Shown: positions 3,913-21,173 of the stretch, one piece after another
Numbering within the stretch: the first letter of the stretch is position 1
How the letters are laid out: every line of letters begins with the position of its first letter
Source of the DNA: Elusimicrobiota bacterium
GTDB lineage: Bacteria > Elusimicrobiota > Elusimicrobia > UBA1565 > UBA9628
DNA: 64,000 nt
NCBI GenBank assembly: GCA_033875325.1
Contig: JANRKA010000111.1
Coordinates: forward strand, 66,790 to 130,789
Direction of reading: 5' to 3'
Notes under the pieces: model-generated
Databases searched by the model: none
Told to the model about the DNA's origin: nothing
Seen by the model: the letters and a program-made list of their open reading frames with translations, nothing else
Made by a program: the position numbers and the translations under genes

Positions 3913-4301
3913 TGAAAAAAGCCATCAACGAGGTCAAAAACGGTCCCGCCGCCTCGGCGCAGTATTCGCTGGCCATCCTCGCCGAGGGCCGCTTCCTCTT
4001 CGTCACGGGCCAGGGGCCCTACAACCCCGCGACCGGCAAGAAGGACCGCGGCACCATCCAGCGCCAGACCGAGCTCACGCTCAACAACCTCAAGGCCGTC
4101 ATCGAGGCGGCGGGTGGGCGCATGGAGGACGTGGTGTCCTGCCGGATGTATCTCCAACCGCTCACGCACGAGACCTTCGCCGCCATGAACGAGGTGTACG
4201 GGAAGTTCTGGGGCCCGGTGCCGCCGACGCGCACCACCATCGGCTGCTCCCTGCTCGACATGGACGTCGAGGCCGACTGCGTCGTGAAGATGAATGCTTA
4301 G
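3912..4301 (+). CDS. ridA: RidA/YjgF/TdcF family reactive-intermediate deaminase
   Basis: ATG 3912 shares 1 nt with the upstream TGA (TGATG). The 129-aa product (GRFLFVTGQGPYNP...TTIGCSLLDMDVEADCV) has typical RidA length and ends. Confidence 0.85.
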   Translation: MKKAINEVKNGPAASAQYSLAILAEGRFLFVTGQGPYNPATGKKDRGTIQRQTELTLNNLKAVIEAAGGRMEDVVSCRMYLQPLTHETFAAMNEVYGKFWGPVPPTRTTIGCSLLDMDVEADCVVKMNA

Positions 4302-6150
4302 CCGAATCTGCGGCGCCGCGGGACGCGGCGCCGCGGCCGTCGTCGCTCCCATGCTTCCGCTCCTGCGCGCGGGGGCCGGAGACGCGTCGTCCTGGCGCGA
4401 GGGCGTGCTTGACGCGCTGGCCTGGACCGGCCGCGCCGAAGGCGCGGCGGCGCGCGACGCCCGTTGGTCGGTCGTGCTCGACGGCACCGTCTTCAACCGC
4501 CGGGAGCTCGGCGGCGGCGGAGACGACGCCGCCCTCGTCCTGGCGCTCGTCGCCAAACACGGCTTTCCCGCCGCGTTGGAGAAGCTCAACGGCGACTTCG
4601 CCGTCGCCGCCTGGGACGCCAAGGAGCAGACTCTTTGGCTCGCCCGCGACCGCTTCGGCGTGCGTCCGCTGTATTGGGCGATGGCGGGCGGGCTCGTCGC
4701 GTTCGCCTCGCGTCCGCGCGCGTTGTTCGCGCTCCCCGGCCTGGCGCCCGCGCCGCGCCGCGAGTACCTCGCCCTTTTCGCGGGCTCGCATTACCGCACC
4801 TTCGACACGAGCCCGAAACTCTCGCCCTACGACGGCATCTTCTCCGTCGAGGCCGGATCCTGGCTCAAAGTGGACGCCTCGGGCAAAACCAGCGAGGGCC
4901 GTTATTGGTCTTTGACCGACCAGAGCGACCTCGACGAGCCCGAGGAGAAACTCGCCGAGCGTTACCGCGCCCTCCTGCTCGACGCCACCGGGCTGCGGGT
5001 CAAGGCGGGAGGCGGACACGCCTTCACCCTCTCCGGCGGCATGGACTCCTCCTCGGTGCTCGCCTGCGCGGTGCGGGAGACGGGCCGCAAGCAGCGCGCC
5101 TTCTCCACCACCTACGAGGACGCGACCTACGACGAGACCGCCGAGATCCGCACCATGCTCGACTCCACGGTGGAGACCTGGACGCCGGTGCGCCTGGGCA
5201 CGCCCGACGTGCCCGCGCTCGTGCGCAAGATGGTCGAGGCCCATGACGAACCCGTGGCCACCGCGACCTGGCTGTCGCATTACACCTTGTGCGACGCGGT
5301 GAAGAAGGAAGGCTACTCGCGCCTGTTCGGCGGCCTGGGCGGCGACGAGCTCAACGCGGGCGAATACGAGTATTTCTTCTTCTTCTTCGCCGACCTGGCC
5401 GCCGCCGGCGACGAGGCCCTGCTGCTGCGCGAGACCGCGGCCTGGGTGGCGCACCACGACCACCCCATCTTCAAGAAGAACGAGGCCGTCATGCGCGACG
5501 GCCTGGCGCGCCTGGCCGACCTGAAGGTCCCCGGCAAGGTGAAGGCCGACCGCAAGCGCCTGGAGCGTTACGCCAAGGCTCTTTCACCCGCCTTCTACGA
5601 CCTGAAGTCCTTCACGCCCCCGCTCGACGCGCCGTTCGCGAGCTGGCTCAAGAACCGCACCTGGCACGACCTGTTCCTGGAGACCCTGCCCTGCTGCCTG
5701 CGCGCCCAGGACCGCCATGGCGCGGCCTTCGGCCTGGAGCACCTCCTCCCTTTCCTCGACCACCGGCTGGTCGAGTTGATGTTCCGCGTCCCCTCGCGAC
5801 TGAAGATCCGCGACGGCGTGACCAAACACCTCCTGCGCCTGGCCATGAAGGGCATCCTCCCCGAGGAGACGCGCACGCGCGTCAAGAAGACGGGCTGGAA
5901 CGCCCCGGCCCACGTCTGGTTCTCGGGCCAAGGCCGCGAGCTGGTGGGCGACCTCATCGGCTCGCGCGAGTTCAAGGAGCGCGGCATCTACGACGCCGCC
6001 GAGGTCCGCCGCCTGGCCGACGAACACGAGCGCATCGTCTCCAGCGGCGCCGCCGAGGACAACCACATGATGTTCTTCTGGCAGCTCGTGAACCTCGAGC
6101 TGTGGCTGCGCTCGCTTCAAGGCGCGACGACTGGCGCGCGCGGCGGATGA
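4294..6150 (+). CDS. Asparagine synthase (AsnB) family amidotransferase with a shortened glutaminase domain
   Basis: ATG 4294 overlaps ridA by 8 nt. The glutaminase core is NGDFAVAAWD...LARDRFGVRPLYW. The PP-loop is FTLSGGMDSSSV. The C-terminal part (FLDHRLVELMFRVPSRLKIRDG...KTGWNAP) is AsnB-like. Confidence 0.85.
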   Translation: MLSRICGAAGRGAAAVVAPMLPLLRAGAGDASSWREGVLDALAWTGRAEGAAARDARWSVVLDGTVFNRRELGGGGDDAALVLALVAKHGFPAALEKLNGDFAVAAWDAKEQTLWLARDRFGVRPLYWAMAGGLVAFASRPRALFALPGLAPAPRREYLALFAGSHYRTFDTSPKLSPYDGIFSVEAGSWLKVDASGKTSEGRYWSLTDQSDLDEPEEKLAERYRALLLDATGLRVKAGGGHAFTLSGGMDSSSVLACAVRETGRKQRAFSTTYEDATYDETAEIRTMLDSTVETWTPVRLGTPDVPALVRKMVEAHDEPVATATWLSHYTLCDAVKKEGYSRLFGGLGGDELNAGEYEYFFFFFADLAAAGDEALLLRETAAWVAHHDHPIFKKNEAVMRDGLARLADLKVPGKVKADRKRLERYAKALSPAFYDLKSFTPPLDAPFASWLKNRTWHDLFLETLPCCLRAQDRHGAAFGLEHLLPFLDHRLVELMFRVPSRLKIRDGVTKHLLRLAMKGILPEETRTRVKKTGWNAPAHVWFSGQGRELVGDLIGSREFKERGIYDAAEVRRLADEHERIVSSGAAEDNHMMFFWQLVNLELWLRSLQGATTGARGG

Positions 6151-6346: not shown

Positions 6347-7288
6347 ATGACCACCAAGCTCTCCGTCGAAGCACTCGAGAAGGCCGCCTCCTCCGTCACG
6401 CGCGCGCGTCCCGGACGCGCGGCGCTCGTGGAAGGGAAAAACGGCCCGGTCCTGCTCGTGGAGTTCGACGGCGTGCGCGTCGGCGACGCGGAGCAGCTCG
6501 CGCGCGAAGCGCAGGCCGCGGCCGGCGGGCACCCGGTCGAGGTCGTGCGCACCGACTGGCTTCCCTGGAGCAAGAAGGGCCCCCAGCGCGCCGCCTGCCA
6601 GACCAAGTACCGGCGCATGTTGGACCTGCGCGCCAAAACCGAGCGGGTGGACCTGCTCAACTTCAAGAACGACGTCACCGAGGCGCAGAAGGATTCCTTC
6701 GGCTACTTCGGCACGCAGTCGCGCATCATGGGCCCCTTCGAGCTCAACGCGCCCTCGCGCATCCATCTGGGCAACTGGGTCTCCTTCGGGCGCTACGGCC
6801 GCGTGCTCATGAACACCGACTTCACGAAGTTCAAAGAGCGCTGCCTCCAGCACTACCCGGAAGTCGCGCACGACTACAGCCCGAAAGTGTTCGGCCCGCG
6901 CGACCCGAAGCTCAAGATCGGCGACGGCACCACCATCGGCGACGGGGTGTTCATCAACTGCACCAACAACATCGAGATCGGCAAACATCTCATCATCTCG
7001 TCTCGGGTTTACATCGGCGACGCCGGGCACAACGTCATGAACCTGGACCTGCCCATCACGCTCTCGGCCAACACCGAGGGGCGGCCGGTCAAGATCGGCG
7101 ACCAGACCTGGATCGGCGTGGGCGCCGTCATCATGGAAGGCATCACCATCGGTAAACACGCCATCATCGGCTCCAACTCCGTGGTGACCAAGAGCGTGCC
7201 CGATTACGGCGTGGCCGCGGGCGTGCCCGCCAAGCTCATCAAGATGCTGGACGGCTCGCCGCTGCCGGTCCCGCCCGTGAAGGCTTAA
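6347..7288 (+). CDS. Hexapeptide-repeat (left-handed beta-helix) acyltransferase with an extra ~110-aa N-terminal domain
   Basis: Hexapeptide-like turns occur in the C-terminal half (IGDGTTIGDGVFI, IGKHLIISSRVYIGD, IGDQTWIGVGAVIMEGITIGKHAIIGSNSVV). It is preceded by its own promoter and Shine-Dalgarno sequence. Confidence 0.8.
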   Translation: MTTKLSVEALEKAASSVTRARPGRAALVEGKNGPVLLVEFDGVRVGDAEQLAREAQAAAGGHPVEVVRTDWLPWSKKGPQRAACQTKYRRMLDLRAKTERVDLLNFKNDVTEAQKDSFGYFGTQSRIMGPFELNAPSRIHLGNWVSFGRYGRVLMNTDFTKFKERCLQHYPEVAHDYSPKVFGPRDPKLKIGDGTTIGDGVFINCTNNIEIGKHLIISSRVYIGDAGHNVMNLDLPITLSANTEGRPVKIGDQTWIGVGAVIMEGITIGKHAIIGSNSVVTKSVPDYGVAAGVPAKLIKMLDGSPLPVPPVKA

Positions 7289-8226
7289 GCCGCGCCGTCG
7301 AGCACGGCTTTCCCGGCCCAGCCCAGCCCGCGCGCCAGCTCGCCGCCGTTCTGCTTGGGGGAGCCTTCGACGCGGCACTTGAGCACTTCGATGAGGCCGC
7401 CCTGGGCGGCGACCTTGAAGCTGCTCTCTCCGACCTCCACGACGTGGCCGACCTTCTGGACCAGGCCGGAGTAGCTCTTGAAAGAATGCTTGCGGCAGTC
7501 GAAGATGTGGATGCGGCGGCCCTGATAGGCGGTCCAGGCGCCGGGCGCGGGGTTGCAGCCGCGGATGAGGTCGTAGATGACATCCACGTGGTTGCCCCAG
7601 TGGATCATCGACTCGCGCTCCTTGAGCCAGCCCTCGTAGGTGGCGCCCTCGTCGCTCTGCGCAGTCTCCGTGTGCGTGCCGGCGAAGACGGCTTCGGCGG
7701 CCTCCAGCAGGGCTTCGATGCCCATGGGGAAGAGCTTGTTGAAGTACAGCTCGCCCAAGGTCTCGTCGGGGCCGATGTCGCAGGCCTTCTGGAGGATGAC
7801 GGGACCCTCGTCGAGCGCGTCCACGGGGCGGAAGATGGACAGGCCGGTGCGGCGCTCGCCGCGCACGATGGCCCAGTTGATGGAGGAGGGGCCGCGGTAT
7901 TTGGGGAGCAGGGACGGGTGGTACTGGATGGTGCCCAGGCGCGGCGTGCTCGTGAAGGTGGCGGGCGCGAACTGCGTGACGTAGGCCATCACGCCGAGGT
8001 CGGCCTTGAGGCTCGTCATCGCGGCGTGCGCCTCGGGGCTGCGCAGGCTGGCGAACTGGAACAGCTTCAGGCCGCGCTCGAGCGCGGCGGTCTTGAGCGG
8101 GTCGGGTTTGGCGCCGGGCGCGTCGGGCAGGCAGAACACGCCGGCGACCTCGTGGCCGCGGGCGAGGAACGCGTCGAGGGCGGCTTTTCCGAAAGCTTGC
8201 TGGCCGAGCAGGGCGATGCGCATCAC
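7285..8226 (-). CDS. Formyltransferase (Fmt/ArnA/FDH N-domain family), last gene of the long minus-strand array
   Basis: Motifs: IQYHPSLLPKYRGPSSINWAIV, DALDEGPVILQ, EGATYEGW, NPAPGAWT. The start overlaps the upstream stop by 4 nt. Confidence 0.85.
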   Translation of the reverse strand: MMRIALLGQQAFGKAALDAFLARGHEVAGVFCLPDAPGAKPDPLKTAALERGLKLFQFASLRSPEAHAAMTSLKADLGVMAYVTQFAPATFTSTPRLGTIQYHPSLLPKYRGPSSINWAIVRGERRTGLSIFRPVDALDEGPVILQKACDIGPDETLGELYFNKLFPMGIEALLEAAEAVFAGTHTETAQSDEGATYEGWLKERESMIHWGNHVDVIYDLIRGCNPAPGAWTAYQGRRIHIFDCRKHSFKSYSGLVQKVGHVVEVGESSFKVAAQGGLIEVLKCRVEGSPKQNGGELARGLGWAGKAVLDGAA

Positions 8227-10502
8227 GACCTCCGTCCGGGCGCGGGCGCCGGATCCGCTTCGAGCACGGCGCGGTTGACCGCGGGCTTGACCGAGGCGGT
8301 CATCACCTTGTCGAGGCCGCGCTGCATGGTGGCGAGCAGGCCCGAGGAGCCGGTGTACACCGCTTTGGCGGCGGTGAGCACATCGAAGCCCTGCCGGCGG
8401 GAGCGGTCGCGGTCCAAGTCGAGCTCGCCCGCGAGCAGGTCGCGGGTGGAGAGGTAGGCGCGCAGCTGGGCGGTCACCAGGCCGGCCGAAGGCTGGGCGC
8501 AGTTGTCGCCGGTCATGTAGAGGTTGACGACGGGCGAGAAGGCCTCGAAGGCGTCATCGTCGGGGGCGGTCCAGCGGTAGGCCAGGCGGCTGCGCGCGCG
8601 CTCGGCGCGGGCGGCCTCGCTGAGCTCGTCGACACCGCGGCCGAGCGCGTCGAGCACGCTGCGGGCGAGCGACTCCATGTATTCGCCTTCCTCGGAGGCT
8701 TCCTGGATGAAGCGGTTGCGGCTCTGCTCGTCGCGGCCGAAGTTCGCGAACTCGAGGAAACGCTCCTGGTCGAAGCCGGCCAGGCGCAGGGCGTAGGCGA
8801 TCTCGAGGTAGGTGAGCGTGCCCGCGTCCAGGCGGGTGAGCAGGTAGCCGGCCACGGCGGCCGCGCCCGCGGGCTCGGGCTTGACGGCGTGCCGGCGCAG
8901 GCGCGCGACTTTGTCCTCTTCGGAGAGGGCGTCGAAGCCCGGCGCCAGAGCGACGCGCGCGAAGTCCTCGGCGTAGACGAGGGCCTGCGCGATGGGGTTG
9001 AGCGTGTGCGTGGCCGGGTGCAGGCCGTCGCGGCCGCGGAAGGCGCCGTCGCCTTCCGCGCTGGCGCGCAGGACGTCGAAACACGAGTTGCCGTTGGCGT
9101 AGGAGCTCGAGCCCAGGCCCACGAAGGCGGTGCCGCGCCCGGAGAGGTGTTTGGTCACGACCACGCCGAAAAGCTGGGCCAAGGACTGCAGGTTGGCGAT
9201 GTCGAAAAGGCCGTGGATGCGCGTGGCGAAGTCCCGGCCGAGGCGCTTGCGGGCGAGGAAGGCGGCGAGCGTCGGGAAGGACTCGCCGATGTTTTTCCAG
9301 GCGGGCGAGGCCGACGGCCCCTCGCGCAGGGTCGCGTCGCACAACACGATGGCGGCCAGCGCCGCGCCGATGGAGGCCTGGTTCCAGGTCGAGGCGGCGG
9401 CCGCGTCGCCGCGGCGCAAGGTCTCCTCGAGCATGACGAGGTAAGGCACGGCCAGGCCCAGAAGGCCGCCGGTCACGCCGCCGCGCACGGCGACGCGGTC
9501 GTTGATGATGCGGGCGCCGAGGCTTTCCAGCGCGACCCGCACGTTGGGGTCGACCAGGAGTTCCTCGAAAGGGATGTTGCGCTCGCGGGCGATGTCGCCC
9601 AGCGAGATGCTCAGGAGGTTCTGCAGCTCCTCGCGCGACTGCGGGTTGGTGGGGAAGAAGTAGCCGCCGGCGTTGAGCGCGTCCTTCAAGGCGCCCGGGT
9701 CGCGTTGCTTGCGGTTGATGTAGGTGTGCAAGACGGTGAGGCGGGGCTTGTCGGCTTCGAGCTCGCGGAGTTTGGCCGTCTTCTCCGGGTTCATGAAGTC
9801 GGCCTGCTCGTCGGGCGCCCAGATGATGAGCTCGCCTTCGTCGGCGTTGAGGATGGTGTAGACGCGCTCTCCCAGGCGCACCTGGCGGCGCTGCATGTAG
9901 CGCAGGGCCTCGTGCAGGGAGATGCCCATGTTGGAGGAGGTCGAGCACACCACGGTGCGCCGCGCGTAGGCGCGCCACAACGCGACGTGCAGGAGCTCGA
10001 CGGAGCCCAGCTGCTCCGCGGTCAAGGTGGCCAGCGCGTCGGGAGTGAAGACCACGGCGCCGTCGCGGCGGCGCGAGGCGAGGAAGGCGAGCCGGGCCTT
10101 CTCGAGCTCCTTGGGCGACAGGGCCTCGAGCTTGCGCAGCTCCAGCTGGGCGTGTTCGGCCAGCAGGCCCAGCGCGTTGAAGCCCTTCACGCAGCTGCCG
10201 AACTGCTTCCAGCCGCGCAGCAGGCGGATGCGGCGGCCGCAGACCAGGCTGGTCAGCGGCGCGTCGAAGACGAGGTTGTCGGTCTCCTCGGCGTAGGGGA
10301 GCTGGTGCGGGTCGGGGTCGCCGGGAAGCTTGATGCCGAGCTCGACGGCCAGGCGCATGGTGAACAGCGCGTGGGTCAGGGGGTCCGGCAGGTTGGGCGT
10401 CGTGTCCGAGGAGAGGTAGACCTGGAAGTTCTCGTCCGGCGACGAGACGCCCGCCGGCCGAGCCAGATGCGTGTAGTGGACCTTCAGGACGCCGGATTCC
10501 AT
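8223..10502 (-). CDS. Hypothetical 759-aa soluble protein; no family assignable by eye
   Basis: Full-length ORF with balanced composition, unlike the Arg/Gly/Pro-rich overlapping frames. There is no TM segment or signal peptide. It is translationally coupled to the formyltransferase (4-nt overlap). Confidence 0.8.
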   Translation of the reverse strand: MESGVLKVHYTHLARPAGVSSPDENFQVYLSSDTTPNLPDPLTHALFTMRLAVELGIKLPGDPDPHQLPYAEETDNLVFDAPLTSLVCGRRIRLLRGWKQFGSCVKGFNALGLLAEHAQLELRKLEALSPKELEKARLAFLASRRRDGAVVFTPDALATLTAEQLGSVELLHVALWRAYARRTVVCSTSSNMGISLHEALRYMQRRQVRLGERVYTILNADEGELIIWAPDEQADFMNPEKTAKLRELEADKPRLTVLHTYINRKQRDPGALKDALNAGGYFFPTNPQSREELQNLLSISLGDIARERNIPFEELLVDPNVRVALESLGARIINDRVAVRGGVTGGLLGLAVPYLVMLEETLRRGDAAAASTWNQASIGAALAAIVLCDATLREGPSASPAWKNIGESFPTLAAFLARKRLGRDFATRIHGLFDIANLQSLAQLFGVVVTKHLSGRGTAFVGLGSSSYANGNSCFDVLRASAEGDGAFRGRDGLHPATHTLNPIAQALVYAEDFARVALAPGFDALSEEDKVARLRRHAVKPEPAGAAAVAGYLLTRLDAGTLTYLEIAYALRLAGFDQERFLEFANFGRDEQSRNRFIQEASEEGEYMESLARSVLDALGRGVDELSEAARAERARSRLAYRWTAPDDDAFEAFSPVVNLYMTGDNCAQPSAGLVTAQLRAYLSTRDLLAGELDLDRDRSRRQGFDVLTAAKAVYTGSSGLLATMQRGLDKVMTASVKPAVNRAVLEADPAPAPGRRS

Positions 10503-10521: not shown

Positions 10522-12342
10522 TCATTTTACCAAATTCCGAGGGGCCCGGCCCGGGGCGCTCTCGTCGGAGAAAGCGAGGTTTTCGAGCAATCCGCGCACC
10601 CGCGCGGCGGCCTTGCCGTCGCGCGGTCCGGCGAAGCGGTCGAGGATGCGGGGGTAGGGCGCGCGCAGCGCGGCGAGGCCGTTCGCGGGGTCGGCGAGCA
10701 GGGCCGCCAGGCGCTTCTTGAGCGCTTCGGGCGCGCGGACCGTCTCGACGCCCCAGGTCCCGTCGAAGGGCGGCTGGTAGAGGACGCGGTTGAACTGGGT
10801 GCAGAGCAGGGGCACGCCCGCCAGCATCGCGTCGATGAGCGCGGTCGAGTAGGAGGCGATGAGCAGGTCCGTCTTCGCCAGGCTGTCGGCGAAGGAGCCG
10901 CCGCGCTCGAGGGTCAGCCGCGAGGCGGGGCCGAGCAGGTCCCGGTAGTAGTCCAGGGACTCGGAAGGATGGATGCGCAGGGTCACCTCGAGCTGCGGGA
11001 AGGCGCCCACGACCTCGGCCAGGGCCAGGGCGTAGCGGTCCGGATCGAGGTGGGTGGCCAGCGCCACGCTCCAGCCGCTGGGCTGGCTCAAGGCCAGGAC
11101 GCGTTTGAGCTCGCGGCGCGGCGACGCCGCGCCGGGGACGCGTCGGTCGAAGGCGGGGTTGCCCAGCGCCTCGCCGCGCCGCGTCTTGAGCGCTCCGGCC
11201 TTGGCGTAGAGCTCCTTCTGCTCCGGCCCCCAGACGACGAGGGCGCTGGTGGCCGAATCGTAGAAGGGGAGCTGGTGATAGGCCTCGGGCAGGCCGTGCA
11301 GGACGGTGACCACGGGCGTGCCGCGCGTTTGGGCCAGGTCCATGAGCAGGTGCTGCAGCGGCGGCTCGTCGAAGGGCAGGAGCACGGCGGCGGGAGGGGT
11401 CGCGTCCCAGTACGCGTGATAACGCGCGCACACCCAGGCCAGCGACTCCAAGGTCGCGCCGAAAAAGGCGTCCAGGCTGGGCTCGAACGCGGGCCACAAC
11501 GAATCGCCTCCGGCCGTGACGAAGCGGGCCAGATAGGCGGGGTCCTTTTTCGCCCGCGACCAGTCCGCGCGGATGGCGGCGCAGGCCGCCGCGTGTTCGC
11601 CGTCGGCGGGGGGCGGGGTGCGCGTATCGGTGAGCAGCTCGCCGCCCGCGCGCAGGAAACGCGGCAGCAGGTCCTTGGTCGGCATGTCCGCGGCCGCGAC
11701 GCGGAAAGGCGAATCCGCGCGGCACAGCTGCTCGAGCACGGGGTCGAGCGCGCGGTAGTTCGAGAGGAGCAGGACCGGCTTGTCGCGCCCGCCGGAGAGT
11801 CGGCCCAGGGCGTTGAGCGCGGACGCGGCGAGACGCTTGGACGGCGTCAAGGCGAAGCGCGGGGGGCGCCAGACCTGGATCTCGGGGCCCGTGCGGCGGC
11901 CGGCGACGACGCGCAGCTCGAAGCCGCAGCGGGACTGGAGCGAGGCGAGCAGGGCGCGCTGCTCCGGGGACAACGAGTCGTCGCAATGCACGACGCGAGG
12001 GGCGTGGCGGCGGACGAGCTCCTGGACCGCGAGCAGGAACTTGTAGCCGGGGAGGACGACGGTGACCCAATGCAGCCAGCGGTAGGCCCGGCCCAACGAG
12101 ACGCCGCGCATCTCGGTGAAGTCGCGCTCGCCGAGGAACTGCCAGGCCGTGGCCAGGCGTTCGGTCTCCTTGACCGCGCCGGCGTTGGCTTCGAGGGGGA
12201 AATGGTCCTCCCAGGCCTCGGGCGCCGCGCCGCGCGCGGCGAGCGAGGCGTAGGCGGCCCAGTCCGAGCACAGGAAACGGACCGCCTTCTCGTCGACGCC
12301 GGCGGCCGGCGACCAGGGCCCGGCGGCGAAGTAGAGGTCCAT
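10522..12342 (-). CDS. Putative GT-B-fold glycosyl/phosphoglycosyl-transferase-like protein (capsule-synthesis-like), function uncertain
   Basis: The start is taken at internal Met48 of tracked ORF 10522-12483, where ATG 12342 shares 1 nt with the upstream TGA. The C-terminal half (VTVLHGLPEAYH...VVWGPEQKELY...GNPAFDR...DLLIASYSTALIDAMLAGVPLL) resembles the nucleotide-sugar-binding half of GT-B enzymes. Confidence 0.65.
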   Translation of the reverse strand: MDLYFAAGPWSPAAGVDEKAVRFLCSDWAAYASLAARGAAPEAWEDHFPLEANAGAVKETERLATAWQFLGERDFTEMRGVSLGRAYRWLHWVTVVLPGYKFLLAVQELVRRHAPRVVHCDDSLSPEQRALLASLQSRCGFELRVVAGRRTGPEIQVWRPPRFALTPSKRLAASALNALGRLSGGRDKPVLLLSNYRALDPVLEQLCRADSPFRVAAADMPTKDLLPRFLRAGGELLTDTRTPPPADGEHAAACAAIRADWSRAKKDPAYLARFVTAGGDSLWPAFEPSLDAFFGATLESLAWVCARYHAYWDATPPAAVLLPFDEPPLQHLLMDLAQTRGTPVVTVLHGLPEAYHQLPFYDSATSALVVWGPEQKELYAKAGALKTRRGEALGNPAFDRRVPGAASPRRELKRVLALSQPSGWSVALATHLDPDRYALALAEVVGAFPQLEVTLRIHPSESLDYYRDLLGPASRLTLERGGSFADSLAKTDLLIASYSTALIDAMLAGVPLLCTQFNRVLYQPPFDGTWGVETVRAPEALKKRLAALLADPANGLAALRAPYPRILDRFAGPRDGKAAARVRGLLENLAFSDESAPGRAPRNLVK

Positions 12343-13136
12343 CAGGCCTTTCCGGCCCGGGCTTCCTTGAAGGACAGGGTCAGGAAGCGCGGATGGACCT
12401 TGATCTCCTCGCGGATGAAGCGGTCCACGTCGCGCGCGCGCATCGCGAGGATGAAGCCGCGGCCGACGCGCACGCGCCGGCAAAGCCCGAGCGCCTCGAC
12501 GCGCTCCTCGAACCAGTCGGTGTCGGTGAGCGCCCCGGGCTCGTCCATCGGGCGGGAGAAGTAGACGGCGCGACGCGGGAGCTTCTCGCCGTTTTTGACG
12601 AGGTTCCCGGTGAACACGCGGTCCTGGCGGTACGGGACGTTCAGGGCGCGCTCGACGAAGTGGATCATCGTCGGGCCCATCAGGAAGCTCAGGTGGCAGA
12701 ACAGTCCGTCGGCTTTGAGGAAACGCTCCCAGAAGCTGTCCGGGCCGAAACAGGCCTCGGGCGCGTCGCGGGTGAATTCCTCGGCGCGCGGCCCCAGCGC
12801 GGCCACGGAGAAGATGGGGTCGTCGGAGCGCCGGGCGCCGGGCAATCGGCGCAGGTCCTCGGCGAACACCCCCATCTCGGACGGGCTGTTGGCCGGGTCA
12901 AAATCCTGCTTGCGGCAGAAGGAGTAGGTGAAGGTGGGCACGCACAAAGTGCCCTTGGGGCCCACCGCGTCTTGCAGCGCGCCCAATATCGTCGAAAAGA
13001 CGTTGGACCGGGTCATCCCGCCTTCGGGCACCCCGAAGTAGCCGACGTTGCTCAAAGTGAAGAGATTGTCGCCTTCGCGCACGCCGGCCGCGGTCAGCGC
13101 CGCGGCCAGGTCGCGGCGCGTGTAATCATGGCTCAT
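12342..13136 (-). CDS. AAC(3)-family (aminoglycoside N3-acetyltransferase-like) N-acyltransferase
   Basis: Internal ATG 13136 (MSHDYTRRDL) overlaps the upstream TGA (ATGA). The 264-aa product (GTLCVPTFTYSF, DPIFSVAALGPRAEEF, FCHLSFLMGPTMIHFVE) resembles the AAC(3)/Antibiotic_NAT fold family. The rest of tracked ORF 12342-14114 is wrong-frame. Confidence 0.8.
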   Translation of the reverse strand: MSHDYTRRDLAAALTAAGVREGDNLFTLSNVGYFGVPEGGMTRSNVFSTILGALQDAVGPKGTLCVPTFTYSFCRKQDFDPANSPSEMGVFAEDLRRLPGARRSDDPIFSVAALGPRAEEFTRDAPEACFGPDSFWERFLKADGLFCHLSFLMGPTMIHFVERALNVPYRQDRVFTGNLVKNGEKLPRRAVYFSRPMDEPGALTDTDWFEERVEALGLCRRVRVGRGFILAMRARDVDRFIREEIKVHPRFLTLSFKEARAGKA

Positions 13137-14311
13137 GACAGGGCGCGGAGTTCGAAGACCCACCAGACGGGGAACTCTTTGAGGAAAGCGTCCTCGGCGT
13201 CGCGCACCGGCCCTTCGTAACACGGCTCCCAGATGCCGGTCACGGCCAGGCCCGCGCCGCGCGCGGACTGCGCCAGCGGCTCGAGCGTGGAGGCGATGCC
13301 CCAGACGCGGCGCTTGTATTCGCCGAGCACGGCCAACGGCTGGGCGGGGTCGCCGTAGCGGCCGCACAACGAGAACGAGCCGTGCGGGTCCATGACCACG
13401 ATGCGCCCACCCGGCGCCAGCAGGCCTTTGAGCGCCGTGAGGAAGCCGACCGCGCCGGCCAGCTCCTCCGGTTTGTTCTTGTAGGACACGAAGTAGAACA
13501 AGAGCACGTCGGAGAGGTAGATGAGGTCGAAGCCCGCGCCTTTGTAGGCGGCCAGGCCCTCCGGCTTGCCGAAGTCGAAGGTCTCGAAGCGCAGGGCGGG
13601 CGCGGTGAAGGTCTTCTTGGCACGCGCGACGTAGTCGGCGTTGGGGTCCAGGCCCAGCACTTCGGCCGCGCCGCCCACGCGGCGGAAGAAATCGGCGAAG
13701 TAGCCCACGCCGCAGCCCGCGTCGAGCACGCGTTTGCCCTTGAGCCCCCAGCCCGGCACCTCGCGCTCCAGCCATTGGTGCTGCACCTTGCGGTAGGCCG
13801 TGTTCTTCACGCCGGAGAGGTCGTCCTCGAACTTCTGCGACACCCACCAGTCGTCGGGCTTCACGCGTTGGCGCAGGAGCAGCTCCAGGCCGATCTGCTG
13901 GTGGAAGTTGCCGAAGCGGTCGGGGTCCATCGGGCGGCGCTTGGGGCCGAAGCGCTCGCGGTAGGCGGCGAGGTCCTCGATGAGCACGAAACGCTCGCGA
14001 AGCAGCGCGACGGCCTCGGCGCCGCTCACGCGCCGGCCGGGCTCGGACGACAGCCCCGTGGCGTCGTCGAGGGCGCATTTGCGCGGGCCGAACACGGTGC
14101 GGTCCTCGGCCCACAGGCCGTCGAGCCCGGCGAGCGCCGCCGTCAGGTCGCCGGGCGCGCGAAGGCGGCGAAGCAGTTCGGCGGCGGAGGGCGACACCGC
14201 GAGATGGATGCGCGCCAGAGGATTGGAGGCGATCCAGTCGCCGCGGCCGTCCACGAGGAAAAGGACGTCCGGGCAGAGCGCGAGGCGGGCGGCGGCGGCC
14301 GGCGCGGTCAC
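13133..14311 (-). CDS. Class I SAM-dependent methyltransferase with a ~170-aa N-terminal extension
   Basis: Full tracked ORF. Motif I is VLDAGCGVGYFADFF. FDLIYLSDVL and LAPGGRIVVMDPHG are also present. Confidence 0.8.
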   Translation of the reverse strand: MTAPAAAARLALCPDVLFLVDGRGDWIASNPLARIHLAVSPSAAELLRRLRAPGDLTAALAGLDGLWAEDRTVFGPRKCALDDATGLSSEPGRRVSGAEAVALLRERFVLIEDLAAYRERFGPKRRPMDPDRFGNFHQQIGLELLLRQRVKPDDWWVSQKFEDDLSGVKNTAYRKVQHQWLEREVPGWGLKGKRVLDAGCGVGYFADFFRRVGGAAEVLGLDPNADYVARAKKTFTAPALRFETFDFGKPEGLAAYKGAGFDLIYLSDVLLFYFVSYKNKPEELAGAVGFLTALKGLLAPGGRIVVMDPHGSFSLCGRYGDPAQPLAVLGEYKRRVWGIASTLEPLAQSARGAGLAVTGIWEPCYEGPVRDAEDAFLKEFPVWWVFELRALS

Positions 14312-14577
14312 GGCGCGGGCGCCGTCTTGAGCTCGGCGACGATCTCGGCCAGGCCGCCGATGGTGGAGAAGCGGCGCTGCTGGAAGTGGCGGTCCTCGAA
14401 ACGCACGCCGTAGGTCTGCTCGAGGTGGGCGACGAGTTCGACGACGCCGAGGGAGTCGAGCAGGCCGGCGGCGAAGTAGTCCGTCGCCAGCTTCTCGGAG
14501 AGAGTGGCGCCGGGCACGGTCCCGCGCGCCTCGAACCAGGCGCAGACGGTCGCGGGGATGTCGTTGGTCATGGTCAT
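14308..14577 (-). CDS. Acyl/peptidyl carrier protein (phosphopantetheine attachment site)
   Basis: Internal ATG 14577 (MTMTNDI) overlaps the upstream TGA by 4 nt. The product is 89 aa with LLDSLGVVELVAHLE (the DSL serine motif). Confidence 0.85.
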   Translation of the reverse strand: MTMTNDIPATVCAWFEARGTVPGATLSEKLATDYFAAGLLDSLGVVELVAHLEQTYGVRFEDRHFQQRRFSTIGGLAEIVAELKTAPAP

Positions 14578-15236
14578 CTCTCGACGGCGAGCACGCGGGC
14601 GGGGGCGCCGTCGGCCCCGAGGATGTTGAGCGGCGCGACCGTGAGCTCGAAGGTGGTCTTGCGCAGCTTGTCGAGGTCGTTGAGGTACTCGATGAGGAAA
14701 AGTCCGCGTCCGAGCATCGCGCGGTGGTTGGGCGCGTCGTTGGCCGTGCGCCAGCCGTGGTCGTGGCAGTCCACCGAGGGCGTGTCGGTACCGAGCAACT
14801 TGACCCCGGAGGCGACGAGCCAGCGGCAGGCTTCGACCGACAGATACGGCGCCTCGGTGTAGTAGCGCATCGTGCCCCAATGTCTGGACCAGCGCCAGCG
14901 CAGCAGCAGGCGGCGGGCGGGCTTCTTGCCCTTGAGCGCGGCTTTGAGCGCGGGCAGGCCGACCTCTTCCTTGGGGCGAGAGGGCAGGTCCACGAGAGAG
15001 GCCGGGCCGGTCATGAGGTCGAGCGGGAGCTTGTCGATGGTCGTGCCGCCGCGCACGAAGTGGAGCGGGGCGTCCACGTGGGTGCCGGTGTGCGTGCCGA
15101 TGACGAGTTTGCGGCTCTCGCGGTCCTCGATGCCGTGGCGGCCGAGCTGGCTGACCTCGACGAGCGGGTGCCAATGGCTGGGGAAGGTGGTCATGCCTTC
15201 GTGGATGGGAAAGCTCAAGTCGATGATGCGGGGCAT
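14574..15236 (-). CDS. Putative cyclase / arylformamidase (kynurenine-formamidase-like) family protein
   Basis: HTGTHVDAPLHF (the HxGTHxDxPxH metal motif), 220 aa. It is preceded by TAGGAGAACC-ATG, a Shine-Dalgarno sequence in the 7-nt gap. Confidence 0.85.
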   Translation of the reverse strand: MPRIIDLSFPIHEGMTTFPSHWHPLVEVSQLGRHGIEDRESRKLVIGTHTGTHVDAPLHFVRGGTTIDKLPLDLMTGPASLVDLPSRPKEEVGLPALKAALKGKKPARRLLLRWRWSRHWGTMRYYTEAPYLSVEACRWLVASGVKLLGTDTPSVDCHDHGWRTANDAPNHRAMLGRGLFLIEYLNDLDKLRKTTFELTVAPLNILGADGAPARVLAVER

Positions 15237-15243
15237 GGTTCTC

Positions 15244-16749
15244 CTAGCGGGCGGCGGCCTGCGTCGCGGCCCAGTCGCGCAGCTCGCGCTTGAGGACCTT
15301 GCCGGTGGGGCCGACGGGCAGCTCCTCGCGGCACAACAGAACGGCGGGGCGCGAGGCGGCCGCTATTTCGGACTTGCAGAAGGCCTCGAGCGACGGGCGC
15401 TCGACGGCCCAGTCGCGGCCGGGCTTGAGCTTGACGACGGCGGCGACGTCCTCGCCCGTGACGGCGTTGGGCACGCCGATGACGGCGACCGCGGCCACGG
15501 CGTCGTGGCGCAGGAGGACGTCCTCCACGGCCATGGGGCTGATGTTGAGGCCGCCGCGGATGATGAGGTCCTTCTTGCGGCCGGTGATGCGCACCAGGCC
15601 GTCGGCGCCGACGGTGCCGGCGTCGCCGGTGGGGAACCACTCGCCCTCGGGCGGGACCACGCGGGAGCTCTCCTGGTCGAGATAACCTGCCATCAGGTGC
15701 GGCGTGCGCGCGAGCAGCTCGCCCTCGGCGTCGGTCTTGAGCTCGACGCCGGGCAGCACGCGCCCGACCGAGCCCTCGACGGATTTGCCGGGCGCGTTGG
15801 CCGCCAGCAGCAAGGTCTCGGAGAGGCCGAAGCTCTCCAGCACCTCGACCCCGTAGGCCTTCTCGAAATCGCGTTTGACCTGCAGGTGCAGCGGGCCCAT
15901 GCCCACGAACACCTTCTTGACGCTCTTGCGGCACCAGGCCTTTCCGGCCTCGTCGCGGTCCACTTTCAGCAGCGCGCTGAGGATGGCCGGCGTCAGCCAG
16001 AGCGCGTTGACCCCGTGCTCCATGGGCGCTTTCCAGAAATCGAGCGCGGTGCGCGGGCCGAAGCCGGGCGTCAGCACGACGGAGGCGCCGGCGGCGTAGG
16101 GGGCGATGAGCGCGTTGAAGAAGCCGCCGCTGTAGGACATGGGCAGCAGGTGCAGGAAACGGTCGGACGGGCCGATGCCCATCGCCGCGTTGAAGGCCGC
16201 GGCGTTGCCGAGCAGGCTGGTCGTGCGATGCGCCACGGCCTTGGGGAAGGCGGTGGTGCCGGAGGTGAAGACGATGGTGAGCAAGTCGGCGGGCGTCGCG
16301 CCGTCGAGCGGCTTCCAGGGGTGCGCGCTCCAGGCCACGCGGAACAGCGGCTCGTGCAGCTTGGGCATGAGCCAACGGCGGGTGGAGTCGGGCGGAGCCG
16401 AAGGGCCGAGCAGGAAGTGCTTGGTCTCTTCTCCATAAACGACCAATTTGGCGCCCGCGTGGCTCAAGACGAAGTGCACATCGCGCAGATGCAGGGAGGG
16501 GTTGGCGGTGACGACGGTGGCGCCCAGGTAGAGGCAGGCGAAATAGAGCACCGCGTATTCCGGGCAGTTCGTGAGCAGGGCCACCACGCGGTCGCCGCGG
16601 CGCACGCCTTCATCCTGGAGCCGGCAGGCCAGGCCCAAGGCCGCGTCGTGGAATTCGCCGAAGCTCAGCGTCTGCCGGCGGTCCGGGATGATGAGGAAGG
16701 GCCGGTCCTTGTTGTCGGCGGCGATGCGCAGGAAATCCTGGGGCGTCAT
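15244..16749 (-). CDS. AMP-forming adenylating enzyme (acyl-CoA/acyl-carrier-protein ligase family)
   Basis: Internal ATG 16749 (MTPQDFL) overlaps the upstream TGA by 4 nt. Core motifs: FTSGTTAFPKAV, WFPTGDAG, GRKKDLIIRGGLNISP, PVGPTGKVLKREL. Confidence 0.85.
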   Translation of the reverse strand: MTPQDFLRIAADNKDRPFLIIPDRRQTLSFGEFHDAALGLACRLQDEGVRRGDRVVALLTNCPEYAVLYFACLYLGATVVTANPSLHLRDVHFVLSHAGAKLVVYGEETKHFLLGPSAPPDSTRRWLMPKLHEPLFRVAWSAHPWKPLDGATPADLLTIVFTSGTTAFPKAVAHRTTSLLGNAAAFNAAMGIGPSDRFLHLLPMSYSGGFFNALIAPYAAGASVVLTPGFGPRTALDFWKAPMEHGVNALWLTPAILSALLKVDRDEAGKAWCRKSVKKVFVGMGPLHLQVKRDFEKAYGVEVLESFGLSETLLLAANAPGKSVEGSVGRVLPGVELKTDAEGELLARTPHLMAGYLDQESSRVVPPEGEWFPTGDAGTVGADGLVRITGRKKDLIIRGGLNISPMAVEDVLLRHDAVAAVAVIGVPNAVTGEDVAAVVKLKPGRDWAVERPSLEAFCKSEIAAASRPAVLLCREELPVGPTGKVLKRELRDWAATQAAAR

Positions 16750-18122
16750 GCGGCCTTCCGGACGCGGCGGCGCGCGGGTTTGGCGGGGGCGGGCGTCTCC
16801 TCGCCCCAGACGGCGTCCACGAGGCCGGCCTGGCGGAAGCGCTCGGCGTAATCCCAGACCTTCTCGAAGGGCAGCTCCAACTCGTCGGCGATGTCCTGGA
16901 TGGTCTTGTCGCCCTCGAAGGCGAGCATCACGCGCTCGATGGTGTCGTCGTTGTTCAAGTCCTCGTAGAGGCCGTAGCGGCTGAGGAAGAGGTTGCCCTT
17001 GTAGCGGCGCTTGGGGCGGTAGTCGCGCTCGAGGATCTGCAGGGCGTCCCAGACCGTATCGAAGGACTGCTTCTGGTAGCGCGGGCTGATGATGCGGATG
17101 TCGTCGTCGCTGGTGTGGTACTCGGGATAGGGCCAGCGCGACACGGACACCGTGGGGATGGAGATGCCGGGGCCGTCGAAGTTGATCTCGTCGTTGCAGA
17201 CGACCTTGCGGAAAGGTCCCACGCCGTAGGCGGGCAAGGCCCCCATCGCGCGCTCCATGGCGCGGTCGAGGGCGGTGTCGCCTTTCTTGGAGCGCTGGAG
17301 CTTGAGGTGGTTCTTGTTGCCCAGCATCTCGAGGAAAACGCCGTATTTGAAGGTGGGGATGAGCTCCTGGTTCTTGTGCAGGTAGCACAACGAGCCGATG
17401 TTCTCGGGGCAGACGACGAGCCGGTAGGTGTAGCGGCGGCTCTTGAGCGTCGCCAGGCGGCGCATGAGCGCGATGCCCGCGGCCACGCCGGAGAGGCCGT
17501 CGTTGCACTGCCCGGGGTGGCACAGGTGCGCGCAGAGGATGATGGAGTCCTCGCTTTCGCCCTTGAGCACGCTTTCACCCACGCGCACGAAGTCGTCGAC
17601 GAGCGCGGTGTCCACCTTGACCTCGTAGCGGCCGGGACCGAGTTTCTTGAAGCGGTCGTAGGGCAGGCTGAAGCCCCAACCGGCCCGGTAATACTTGTAG
17701 ACGTAGGGGATGGCCGCGGGCCGGTCGGAGTCGAAGTAGAGGTGCTCCTTGAGCTCGTCGAAGCTCAGCGTGCCTGAAAAGGGCACCGAGTAACTCACGA
17801 GGTGGAGGGGGTGGTCCTTGAAGTCCACGACGACCTTGCCGTCCTTTTTCACCCAGGCCTCGCGCACGACCCATTTCTTGGGCGCGGTCCAGGACCAGAC
17901 CTCGGAGTCGGAGGCGACCTTATGGATCTTTAGAGGAAGGAGGCGGCTGATGTAGTCGAGGGATTCCTCGTAGCCGTCGGAGATGAGGGAGCGGTTTTTG
18001 GGGCCGAGGTCGCGCAGCACCGTCATCATCAGCTCGGTGTAGGCGTCGGCGGGGGGCTCTCCGCCGGCGCCGGCGAGGTCGAAACTGGGGGTGAAATCGT
18101 AGCGTTTGGCGCTCTTGTTCAT
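16746..18122 (-). CDS. DUF4910 / aminopeptidase-like-domain protein (COG4310-type) with a C-terminal winged-helix-like tail
   Basis: Full tracked ORF. ILCAHLCHPGQCNDGLSGVAAG and RWPYPEYHTSDD match my memory of this polysaccharide-cluster family. It is preceded by its own promoter. Confidence 0.75.
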   Translation of the reverse strand: MNKSAKRYDFTPSFDLAGAGGEPPADAYTELMMTVLRDLGPKNRSLISDGYEESLDYISRLLPLKIHKVASDSEVWSWTAPKKWVVREAWVKKDGKVVVDFKDHPLHLVSYSVPFSGTLSFDELKEHLYFDSDRPAAIPYVYKYYRAGWGFSLPYDRFKKLGPGRYEVKVDTALVDDFVRVGESVLKGESEDSIILCAHLCHPGQCNDGLSGVAAGIALMRRLATLKSRRYTYRLVVCPENIGSLCYLHKNQELIPTFKYGVFLEMLGNKNHLKLQRSKKGDTALDRAMERAMGALPAYGVGPFRKVVCNDEINFDGPGISIPTVSVSRWPYPEYHTSDDDIRIISPRYQKQSFDTVWDALQILERDYRPKRRYKGNLFLSRYGLYEDLNNDDTIERVMLAFEGDKTIQDIADELELPFEKVWDYAERFRQAGLVDAVWGEETPAPAKPARRRVRKAA

Positions 18123-21157: not shown

Positions 21158-21163
21158 GGGGAG

Positions 21164-21169: not shown

Positions 21170-21173
21170 GGCG

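Follow-up and report, generated by a model that had tools for sequence, protein, structure and literature searches.

What kind of protein is encoded by a 759-codon open reading frame (ORF) that lies beside a formyltransferase gene in a glycan-modification operon, and with which of its neighbours does it cooperate? The question is raised by a stretch of 64,000 nucleotides of contig JANRKA010000111.1 from an Elusimicrobiota metagenome-assembled genome (MAG), which we refer to as the window; the ORF occupies positions 8223–10502 of its minus strand, and we call the 759-aa product X. Its sequence matches exactly the NCBI entry MDX6769806.1, which bears the name "hypothetical protein SF051_09760". 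An earlier reading of the DNA letters (the original prediction) regarded X as an orphan that cannot be placed in any family, translationally coupled to the formyltransferase and a good candidate for a new enzyme family. According to our analysis, X would be the first representative of a family of ~750 aa, rich in insertions and so far without annotation, that belongs to the fold-type II (tryptophan-synthase-beta-like) pyridoxal 5'-phosphate (PLP) enzymes and makes an acid destined for a glycan; taken as a whole, with the glycan-acid role included, this is the explanation towards which we lean, if with reserve. That the ORF is a real gene is supported by its uninterrupted 759-aa frame starting with ATG and by a codon-position GC content (0.70/0.47/0.95) like that of the other genes of the window, which has ~70% G+C. 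X contains no predicted transmembrane segment (the Kyte-Doolittle mean over 19 residues peaks at 1.38), as had been noted, and the two Gly-rich spots to which attention had been drawn are both present and conserved (G346, G349 and G462–S467 are invariant).

The view of X as an orphan did not survive a search of 5.8 billion proteins, which returned 204 homologues at E ≤ 1e-3 from at least 10 phyla (Verrucomicrobia, Bacteroidetes, Elusimicrobia, Melainabacteria, Acidobacteria, Alphaproteobacteria and others). The best 120 of these 204 are 43–91% identical to X over 74–100% of the query, and none of them carries a functional name past "hypothetical protein", apart from fusion proteins named for a ligase half. 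In an alignment of 40 homologues the mean column identity is 50%, and over 100 positions do not vary between phyla. Members of the family are rare all the same, with 103 among 1.84 billion representatives clustered at 50% identity, and searches with the pattern GGYFFPTN, taken from the block of residues 267–289, revealed 42 loci in 185,579 species genomes. Only one of the hosts of these 42 loci is clearly cultured (Brevifollis gellanilyticus NBRC 108608), the remaining loci being labelled as MAGs. Profile searches of Pfam, NCBIfam and PDB, carried out with the single sequence and with a profile of 40 sequences, found no match and assigned no family; matches to PksG (E 1.2) and to a c-di-GMP receptor (E 0.67) were dismissed as noise. 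At the level of sequence databases X is indeed not placeable, as had been claimed, but the predicted structure and profile-profile alignments put its core in the fold-type II PLP superfamily.

The AlphaFold2 model of X, built from the 40-sequence alignment (pLDDT 88.5, pTM 0.89), predicts two alpha/beta domains with fold-type II topology, and all 50 best matches retrieved from PDB by Foldseek are fold-type II PLP enzymes (probability 0.75–1.00, 49 of the 50 at 0.94 or above; TM-score on the target up to 0.65). The top match is threonine deaminase (8zkv: E 4e-4, TM-score on the target 0.62–0.65, probability 1.00); diaminopropionate (DAP) ammonia-lyase (4d9g) and D-serine dehydratase (3ss7), both with probability 1.00, as well as threonine synthase, are likewise among the leading matches, while O-phosphoserine and O-acetylserine sulfhydrylases, serine racemase (ranks 20–28), TrpB and CBS are found lower in the list. 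We also compared X by hhalign with a reference alignment of TdcB, IlvA, CysK, CysM, DsdA and YgeX from E. coli, using in addition a broader X profile that takes in homologues 20–25% identical. Global alignment with the PALP enzymes failed owing to large insertions, and local mode alone was informative; the best local alignment, obtained with the broader profile (E 0.0049, X residues 93–590 versus TdcB residues 5–314), lines up the Asn loop and the NQASIG, GLG and EPAGA motifs of X with their TdcB counterparts.

The positions expected to form the active site are conserved in the same order (Table 1). An alternative hhalign alignment superimposes GSCVKGFNALG of X on GSFKIRGAFN of TdcB and K106 on the Schiff-base lysine K58; K106 remains conserved in at least 90% of sequences once distant homologues, which read "AIKG", are added, and in the model it starts the helix 106–126, so that both sequence and model suggest an S-x-K motif with the lysine at a helix N-terminus. 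In the loop predicted to bind the substrate carboxylate, C186, T188, S189, N191, G193 and H197 are invariant in the 40 sequences, and STSSNMG, aligned with CSAGNHA of TdcB, conforms to the pattern S/T-x-G/S-N-x-G. For the phosphate-binding loop there are two candidates. Residues 340–352, the first of the two Gly-rich spots, were aligned with "PIGGGGLIAG" of TdcB in the first hhalign run, and G346 and G349 are invariant there; in better-scoring runs they were displaced by residues 372–384, which suit the strand-helix pattern of the model better than 341–349 (predicted strand 369–376, then helix 379–394) and which contain the invariant residues S377, I378 and A380 as well as G379, kept by at least 90% of the sequences in the 40-sequence alignment and by all in the broader one. 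The second Gly-rich spot falls on the substrate side, with V461–Y468 invariant and VGLGSSS paired with LADGCDVS of TdcB; GLGSSS was also considered as the phosphate loop and ruled out, as the alignments map it to the substrate-side "DG.xV/GIG" motif. PEPAGAAAVAG of X is aligned with TEGAGALACAA of TdcB and compares with "AEPSGALALAG" of IlvA. TGDN, matched to "IISGGN" of TdcB by inspection and carrying no alignment score, is the likely counterpart of the "SGGN" motif in Ser/Thr dehydratases. Homologues only 20–25% identical to X repeat these motifs as AIKG, PTSGSFG, NQPxIGA, YPEPAGAA and TGxNG, and distant homologues retain the family-specific block 267–289 as "TNPKS".

X thus has in common with IlvA/TdcB, DsdA and YgeX the collinear arrangement of S-x-K, S-x-x-N loop, GxG, E-P-x-G-A and a final (S/T)G(G/D)N, and with DsdA and YgeX an insertion after the lysine helix. 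It differs from the Ser/Thr deaminases in its low identity (~10%), in being twice their size, with at least five insertions and a long C-terminal helical arm, and in its own blocks RDPGAL..GGYFFPTNPQS and GLGSSSYANGN. In the model, the elements extra to the PLP core are the N-terminal 77 residues, helical insertions at ~113–180, ~290–368 and ~560–655, and a 90-residue C-terminal helical arm. Since the fold search, the collinear motifs and the invariance of residues converge, we assign X on the basis of its model, with high confidence, to the fold-type II PLP superfamily, as a very divergent, double-sized member that is predicted from sequence and model to bind PLP.

Several points weigh against this assignment. 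The Pfam PALP model (PF00291) does not match X, for which no Pfam family was detected at E ≤ 0.01, and Pfam scans of ten distant X homologues provided no bridge to PALP; this makes X a relative at the level of the superfamily, outside the curated PALP family. The one-to-one hhalign E-values are 0.005–0.03 but the corresponding probabilities just 2–7%. The choice of K106 depends on the alternative alignment, since a 58-residue insertion follows it, and the phosphate loop is ambiguous between 341–349 and 372–384. The PLP fold explains just about half of the chain: a structural match to a characterized superfamily has been found, yet it is far from full-length. The idea of a wholly new enzyme family is therefore right inasmuch as these proteins are unannotated and enzyme-like, and wrong as regards the fold, which belongs to a known superfamily. 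The extra helical half of the chain, with its 90-residue C-terminal arm, and the failure of the PALP model would also agree with X being a catalytically dead PLP-fold scaffold, or a regulatory subunit of a ligase or acyl-transfer complex. We find this extremely improbable, for the lysine and the Asn loop, like more than 100 other positions, do not vary between phyla, distant homologues retain the same motifs, and such residues are normally the ones that pseudoenzymes lose.

With whom X works was addressed by analysis of gene neighbourhoods in 41 non-redundant related loci and the window (the pairs L001/L036, L003/L028 and L004/L013 were each counted once, and the fragment loci L045 and L046, in which X did not pass the filter, were not included in the 41). 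Twenty reference proteins were scored by tblastn within ±10 kb of X, and the ORFs of the neighbourhoods were subjected to unbiased all-against-all clustering as a second approach. An acyl-AMP ligase was found near X in 24 loci and an ATP-grasp enzyme in 14, and there is no locus with both. Moreover, at least 17 of the best 120 of the 204 matches are fusions of 1,197–1,308 aa in which an N-terminal X is followed by the AMP ligase (e.g. P0026, P0027, P0033 and P0036). With the two ligase types never occurring together and natural fusions in existence, the conserved partner of X is a carboxylate-activating enzyme. Its setting also distinguishes X from the Ser/Thr deaminases, in that X occurs in glycan clusters and fused to acyl-AMP ligases and not in amino-acid catabolism or biosynthesis.

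Two types of cassette can be distinguished. Type A (24 loci, including the window) has the order (GDH-like)–X–acyl-AMP ligase–(VOC/glyoxalase-like)–(hexapeptide transferase)–PF04199 hydrolase–acyl carrier protein (ACP)–methyltransferase–AAC(3)-like–DUF4910, where GDH stands for glutamate dehydrogenase. Type B (14 loci) has the order 262-aa protein–GH130-like–methyltransferase–ATP-grasp (L-amino-acid-ligase-like)–(RidA)–X–Amidohydro_2, with an Asp-type aminotransferase, DegT aminotransferases and an ArnC/PgfS-like GT2 glycosyltransferase nearby. The GH130-like protein (313 aa; L026:12173-13111) and the 262-aa protein, which has no family match (L025:14716-15501, minus strand), accompany X and ATP-grasp in ~10 of the type B loci. 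The cassettes are often located inside pseudaminic/legionaminic-acid clusters: verrucomicrobial type A cassettes have as their immediate neighbours pseB, pseC, a pseG/pseH fusion, a PIG-L deacetylase, NeuB and a CMP-transferase, the Bacteroidetes type B locus L001 adjoins NeuB, a CMP-transferase and HisH/HisF-like genes, and pseI and pseF are also among the genes flanking X cassettes. Synteny with a carrier protein, which the original prediction had made a test of its idea, is real and extends to ~60% of the related loci. Searches of the literature on nonulosonic acid with ATP-grasp and RidA, or on legionaminic acid with N-methyl-glutamyl, did not find the cassette.

The formyltransferase, for which X had been proposed as a dedicated partner, behaves differently: a homolog of the enzyme of the window adjoins X only in the window itself and in L005. 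L027 has a distant formyltransferase (23% identity) 4.5 kb from X, and in eight verrucomicrobial loci a formyltransferase-like gene of the unrelated 1zgh type is found amid the pse genes, ~4 kb from X. The product of the latter (L007-L010, L014-L016, L023, L042 and similar; e.g. L009:5299-6225) contains the PF21553 C-terminal domain, matches PDB entry 1zgh with 4e-58 and is accompanied by the PIG-L deacetylase, which suggests that in the verrucomicrobial cassettes pseudaminic acid is de-N-acetylated and then re-acylated or formylated.

The argument from gene overlap fails as well. The junction between the stop codon of X and the start of the formyltransferase reads GGAGGtcGTGATG, with GGAGG located 5 nt upstream of the ATG at 8223. 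The NCBI record of the formyltransferase (P0216) is the 312-aa ATG form, and in L005, which is 90% identical, the junction is cCTGATG, without GTG, so that ATG is the sole possible start there; the overlap is most likely 1 nt (TGATG), and not 4 nt as had been stated. Overlapping stop and start codons occur at five of the eight operon junctions (ATGA, GTGA, ATGA, TGATG, TGATG). Overlap being the rule in this operon, that between X and the formyltransferase carries nothing specific to these two genes, and a fixed stoichiometry cannot be deduced from it.

One could still regard X as a wholly new family and a stoichiometric partner of the formyltransferase in a hand-off of formyl groups to the carrier protein. 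The overlapping codons and the carrier protein in the operon agree with this, and so does the formyltransferase itself, which resembles the N-terminal domain of 10-formyltetrahydrofolate dehydrogenase (FDH), has its closest relatives beside formyl-CoA transferase and oxalyl-CoA decarboxylase, and may be compared with LctF and HypX, which form formyl-CoA from 10-formyltetrahydrofolate (10-formyl-THF; PMC11730586, PMC6802093). Nonetheless, with adjacency confined to the window and L005, overlapping junctions usual in the operon, a recognizable PLP fold in X and an AMP ligase as its conserved and fused partner, we regard the hand-off as very improbable. Formylation is a recurrent companion decoration, not the partner function of X.

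Other neighbours of X bear on its chemistry: an amino-acid (Asp-type) aminotransferase or a GDH-like gene adjoins it in many loci. GDH, by its established mechanism, uses a lysine to activate water for imine hydrolysis or formation. A motif scan, which found X-adjacent GDH-like proteins in 20 loci, showed that this catalytic lysine of GG(G/A)KGG (K128 in E. coli) is replaced by A, G or N in all X-adjacent GDH-like proteins found (variants PHGGAAGG, GGAGGG and GGANGG), none of which has the residue required of a genuine GDH; a non-adjacent GDH paralogue in L011 retains it. Eight of the GDH-like proteins aligned with E. coli GdhA keep K92, K116, D168, S380 and the dinucleotide (NAD) fold, K92 and S380 being the residues that bind the gamma-carboxylate. 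Systematic loss of the lysine suggests, from sequence comparison, that the protein handles imines or an N-substituted glutamate and is not a normal GDH. A second link with glutamate is provided by P0165 (1,640 aa; L052:10001-14923), in which an X-like domain with all motifs replaces the ammonia-generating amidotransferase domain of the glutamate synthase (GltS) large subunit and is followed by the central, FMN and GXGXG domains. The neighbourhood of P0165 is not a glycan cluster, and the neighbourhoods of the distant subfamily (P0165, P0160) were uninformative.

We propose, with moderate confidence, that X produces the acid which the neighbouring enzyme activates and which later becomes an N-acyl group on an amino sugar. 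The reaction is probably a beta-elimination, with chemistry analogous to that of dehydratases and ammonia-lyases, though our confidence in the exact reaction is low. This type of reaction is favoured because the best structural matches are deaminases, because RidA, aminotransferases and GDH-like neighbours deal with imino or 2-oxo acids, and because P0165 has an X-like domain in place of the ammonia-generating domain of GltS. RidA, an enamine/imine deaminase which is known to quench enamines released by enzymes of the Ser/Thr-deaminase type and whose association is common to these deaminases and X loci, is encoded between ATP-grasp and X, or beside both, in five loci. The gamma-carboxylate binders of the GDH-like partner, the Asp-type aminotransferase, and the relationship of the AMP ligase to oxalate-, malonate- and OSB (o-succinylbenzoate)-CoA ligases, which follow FadD13 as the nearest PDB relatives of the enzyme in the window, give a weak hint that the substrate may be a C4/C5 dicarboxylic amino acid.

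In the proposed mechanism X would form an external aldimine with a beta-substituted amino acid, eliminate the beta-substituent in the fashion of a dehydratase or ammonia-lyase and release an enamine/imine. The imine would then undergo hydrolysis, through RidA in the loci that have it, with re-amination by the Asp-type aminotransferase, or else be taken over by the GDH-like neighbour that lacks the lysine. The acyl-AMP ligase, adjacent or fused, would adenylate the resulting acid and load it onto the carrier protein; in the other type of cassette the ATP-grasp enzyme would ligate it directly. Finally, it would be tailored by the methyltransferase and the PF04199 hydrolase and moved onto the amino group of the sugar by the AAC(3)-like acyltransferase/DUF4910 module.

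Other observations speak against this role or limit it. RidA is present in just five loci, the GDH-like gene is missing from the window and from other Elusimicrobia loci, and a fatty-acyl-type AMP ligase does not by itself identify the acid that is loaded. Beta-replacement, racemization and elimination are all carried out on the same scaffold. Finally, tblastn detected no NeuB or DegT homolog in the 64-kb window, which, lacking NeuB and a recognized sugar aminotransferase, does not point to a particular acceptor sugar.

The common scaffold invites comparison with SbnA/SbnB, the route to L-2,3-diaminopropionate for staphyloferrin B, in which a PLP enzyme of fold-type II works together with an NAD-dependent one acting at the C-alpha–N bond of glutamate. 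By analogy, X likewise appears paired with an NAD-type, glutamate-linked partner (the GDH-like neighbour, the GltS fusion); unlike SbnB, this partner belongs to the ELFV/GDH family, without the catalytic lysine, and not to the ornithine-cyclodeaminase family, and it is absent from many loci, including the window. X could then be a synthase that works by beta-replacement, as SbnA, CysK and TrpB do, and that assembles a non-proteinogenic amino acid, e.g. from activated serine and glutamate, for activation and transfer to the sugar, the lysine-less GDH-like neighbour taking the part of SbnB and oxidizing the N-substituted glutamate to 2-oxoglutarate and e.g. diaminopropionate. Fold and motifs fit this equally well (O-acetylserine sulfhydrylase, CBS and TrpB are among the Foldseek matches), the GDH-like proteins of 20 loci have lost the lysine and kept the binders of the Glu side chain and the NAD site, which would leave room for an N-substituent, and the fusion to glutamate-synthase domains points to glutamate/2-oxoglutarate. 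However, neither the window nor the other Elusimicrobia loci have the GDH-like gene, and almost all ATP-grasp-type loci are without it too, so an obligatory SbnB-like partner is not general; RidA as a companion is better explained by enamines that are released, and the top structural matches are to deaminases and not to synthases. We consider a beta-replacement synthase possible, if on balance unlikely.

D-aminoacyl substituents are known on nonulosonic acids, and this, together with the serine racemases at Foldseek ranks 20–28 and the coupling of X to L-amino-acid-ligase-like ATP-grasp enzymes, could indicate a racemase or epimerase resembling serine racemase, which would give D-Ala, D-Ser, D-Asp or D-Glu for attachment to the glycan by the neighbouring ligase. 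Such an activity would leave RidA, the aminotransferase, the GDH-like neighbours and the glutamate-synthase fusion unexplained; in addition, the AMP ligase is of the fatty-acyl/dicarboxylate type and not amino-acid-adenylating, and the racemase matches are weaker than those to deaminases, all of which renders it improbable. In a further reading, X and the lysine-less GDH homolog (or RidA and aminotransferase) would form an undescribed pathway in which an imino or N-substituted dicarboxylic amino acid is handed directly to an imine-level reductase or oxidase, yielding a new N-acyl decoration of pseudaminic/legionaminic-type sugars; this is a speculative and rather unlikely proposal.

The remainder of the cassette has published parallels. 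Gene neighbourhood ties the DUF2172/DUF4910 module, in the study of CA_C2195, to modified surface carbohydrates (PMC4000134), and the Campylobacter protein Cj1295 is required for di-O-methylglyceroyl-pseudaminic acid (PMC3068675, PMC6321876). X loci and the Cj1295/CA_C2195 modules have the same neighbours, namely DUF4910, AAC(3)-like protein, ACP, S-adenosylmethionine (SAM)-dependent methyltransferase and adenylating enzyme, by NeuB/pse genes. In contrast, the published neighbourhood tables and the papers cited here (PMC4000134, PMC3068675, PMC6321876) describe no X-type protein in such modules, and the window is without NeuB. Whether accompanied by the GDH-like gene or not, X gives the impression of an additional branch that supplies a different acid to a DUF4910-type module.

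The formyltransferase of the window merits separate consideration. Its identification is confirmed by both Pfam domains (Formyl_trans_N 1e-27, Formyl_trans_C 1e-14). It had been likened to ArnA and FDH more than to methionyl-tRNA formyltransferase (Fmt), which is correct for FDH and not for ArnA: among PDB sequences the FDH N-domain scores best (1s3i, 196 bits, 1.2e-56), followed by Fmt (130 bits) and ArnA (98 bits), and sugar N-formyltransferases are also well below 1s3i. It fails the Fmt equivalog model TIGR00460 (158.8 bits versus a cut-off of 201.5) and the ArnA model NF005998 (107.8 bits versus a cut-off of 777), and its 312 aa leave it without a second enzyme domain. Closest to the N-domain of ALDH1L1, it contains the HPSLLPKYRG motif and the VDALDEGPV segment, which places it in the FDH-N type; its public annotation as Fmt is probably wrong. 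The nearest relatives outside Elusimicrobia are betaproteobacterial proteins (65–69% identity, 310 aa), also annotated as Fmt. In all three betaproteobacterial contexts examined the formyltransferase directly follows the formyl-CoA transferase gene frc (577 bits, above cut-off), with the oxalyl-CoA decarboxylase gene oxc (1000 bits, above cut-off) beside frc or one gene off and a TctCBA transporter upstream. Because these relatives adjoin frc/oxc, and LctF and HypX are precedents for the transfer of formyl from 10-formyl-THF to CoA (PMC11730586, PMC6802093), it is plausible by analogy that the FDH-type formyltransferase handles phosphopantetheine thiols, an idea that concerns this enzyme and has no demonstrated bearing on X. 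The oxc/frc-linked proteins suggest an uncharacterized family of formyl-CoA/10-formyl-THF formyltransferases. Similar to the FDH/ALDH1L1 N-domain, LctF and the HypX N-domain as it is, the enzyme of the window differs from its oxc/frc-linked relatives in being encoded within a glycan operon that has neither oxc nor frc. By the same analogy it might supply a formyl thioester to one of the acyltransferases; a conventional N-formyltransferase acting on a sugar or an aminoacyl group is an equally good possibility. In the window it is a lineage-specific add-on that probably gives formyl, possibly as a thioester, for a second N-substituent, and not the partner of X. A pairing of the formyltransferase with the PF04199 protein for Arn-like formylation and deformylation was considered and not adopted, as PF04199 is conserved with ACP in loci without the formyltransferase.

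In the window, the GC content at third codon positions (GC3), together with Pfam and NCBIfam, defines an operon on the minus strand with the 5'→3' order DUF4910/DUF2172, acyl-AMP ligase, PF04199, ACP, methyltransferase, AAC(3)-like, U653, X and formyltransferase (Table 1). The carrier protein predicted ~4 kb upstream is indeed there, 3.8 kb from the X ORF. The true orphan of the operon is not X but U653, which has only 5 homologs in 5.8 billion proteins plus a weak one in L006; its AlphaFold2 model (pLDDT 67) matches the GT-B-fold proteins WecB, CalG3, TagF and BshA in Foldseek, and it is probably a lineage-specific glycosyltransferase. U653 as a stand-in for the missing GDH-like gene was ruled out in view of this GT-B-fold glycosyltransferase-like character.

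The surroundings agree with the glycan cluster that had been proposed, and include Wzy_C, a flippase, GT2, GT4 and GT-C enzymes, a LegB-like 4,6-dehydratase, a KpsF-like isomerase, two AsnB-like amidotransferases and a hexapeptide acyltransferase. Adjoining the acylation operon, at 19231-23411 (minus strand), a short GT2 (20465-21202) like AglJ, dolichyl-phosphate-hexose and ArnC-type polyprenyl-phosphate sugar synthases is encoded between two large PMT_2 (GT-C) membrane proteins, an arrangement that recalls the Arn system, with a lipid-linked sugar and subsequent periplasmic transfer. The LegB-like NAD-dependent 4,6-dehydratase (29528-30520, minus strand; TIGR04180, 455 bits versus a cut-off of 475) and the KpsF/GutQ-like SIS+CBS isomerase (31445-32710, minus strand) are located further away. 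The genes of the hexapeptide acyltransferase (6347-7288, plus strand) and the formyltransferase (7285-8223, minus strand) are convergent, with a 4-nt tail-to-tail overlap at 7285-7288. The two AsnB-family asparagine-synthase-like amidotransferases (28-930 and 4294-6150, plus strand), together with two further methyltransferases, are encoded on the opposite strand beside the operon and possibly serve amidation or methylation of the same glycan.

Table 1. Features of X, of its operon in the window and of related loci. Coordinates refer to the window unless preceded by a locus name.
Feature	Residues of X	Coordinates	Strand	Remarks
X, divergent fold-type II PLP-enzyme-like protein		8223..10502	-	759 aa; ATG start; NCBI MDX6769806.1, SF051_09760
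Predicted Schiff-base lysine motif GWKQFGSCVKGFNALGL	97-113	10164..10214	-	K106 invariant in 40 sequences
Asn (predicted carboxylate-binding) loop VVCSTSSNMGISLH	184-197	9912..9953	-	hhalign onto TdcB VVACSAGNHAQGVS
Family-specific signature, most conserved block RDPGALKDALNAGGYFFPTNPQS	267-289	9636..9704	-	columns 267-288 invariant
Alternative phosphate-loop candidate RGGVTGGLLGLAV	340-352	9447..9485	-	inserted subdomain; first Gly-rich spot
Candidate PLP phosphate-binding loop, best TWNQASIGAALAA	372-384	9351..9389	-	broader-profile alignment to TdcB VIVPIGGGGLIAGIAV
Putative substrate-side "A(D/E)G.xV / GIG" equivalent VGLGSSSYANGN	461-472	9087..9122	-	aligned to TdcB LADGCDVSRPGN; second Gly-rich spot
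Putative equivalent of "E(P/G)(S/A)GA" motif under PLP ring KPEPAGAAAVAGY	541-553	8844..8882	-	K541, E543, G546, A547 invariant
TGDN after last core strand	664-667	8502..8513	-	T664, G665, D666 invariant; strand 658-662 precedes
FDH-N-type formyltransferase, last operon gene		7285..8223	-	312 aa; ATG start; GTG at 8226 possible
U653, GT-B-fold protein SF051_09765, directly upstream of X		10522..12345	-	5 homologs
AAC(3)-like N-acyltransferase (Antibiotic_NAT)		12342..13136	-	Pfam 9e-33; NCBIfam AAC_3 below cut-off; start at ATGA junction
SAM-dependent methyltransferase		13133..14311	-	Pfam Methyltransf_23/31/25; GC3 frame
Acyl carrier protein (PP-binding)		14308..14571	-	87 aa; Pfam PP-binding 7.8e-07; kept in 21 loci
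PF04199 "cyclase"/arylformamidase-like metal hydrolase		14574..15236	-	Pfam 4.5e-32; NCBIfam arylformamidase 92 bits, below cut-off
Acyl-AMP (CoA/ACP) ligase		15244..16749	-	Pfam AMP-binding 1.8e-64; fused to X C-terminus in other organisms
DUF4910/DUF2172 M28-like protein (Cj1295/CA_C2195 family)		16746..18122	-	Pfam 9e-67
Lys-less GDH-like gene directly upstream of X homolog		L002, L004, L007-L010, L012, L014-L018, L023, L031, L035, L037, L042, L044, L045; e.g. L004:338-1579		
Betaproteobacterial formyltransferase homologs		L054, L055, L056, each 8001-8933		

Nonulosonic acids and other surface amino sugars carry many exotic N-acyl groups, which affect immune recognition and phage sensitivity and most of whose origins are unexplained. 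The X family, ~50% identical across phyla and hard-wired or fused to acid activation, may offer an entry point to one of these N-acyl pathways, and with the culturable Brevifollis gellanilyticus NBRC 108608 among its hosts it is open to testing. The assignment of X would mean that the fold-type II PLP superfamily holds a double-sized branch that current profile libraries do not see, and the analysis of its neighbours has brought to light a set of GDH homologs without the catalytic lysine. The oxc/frc-linked FDH-type formyltransferases, for their part, suggest an unrecognized link between the formyl-CoA and folate C1 pools. If the pathway of X and the lysine-less GDH homolog should prove true, the PLP enzyme family, the use made of the GDH fold and the glycan substituent would all be new.

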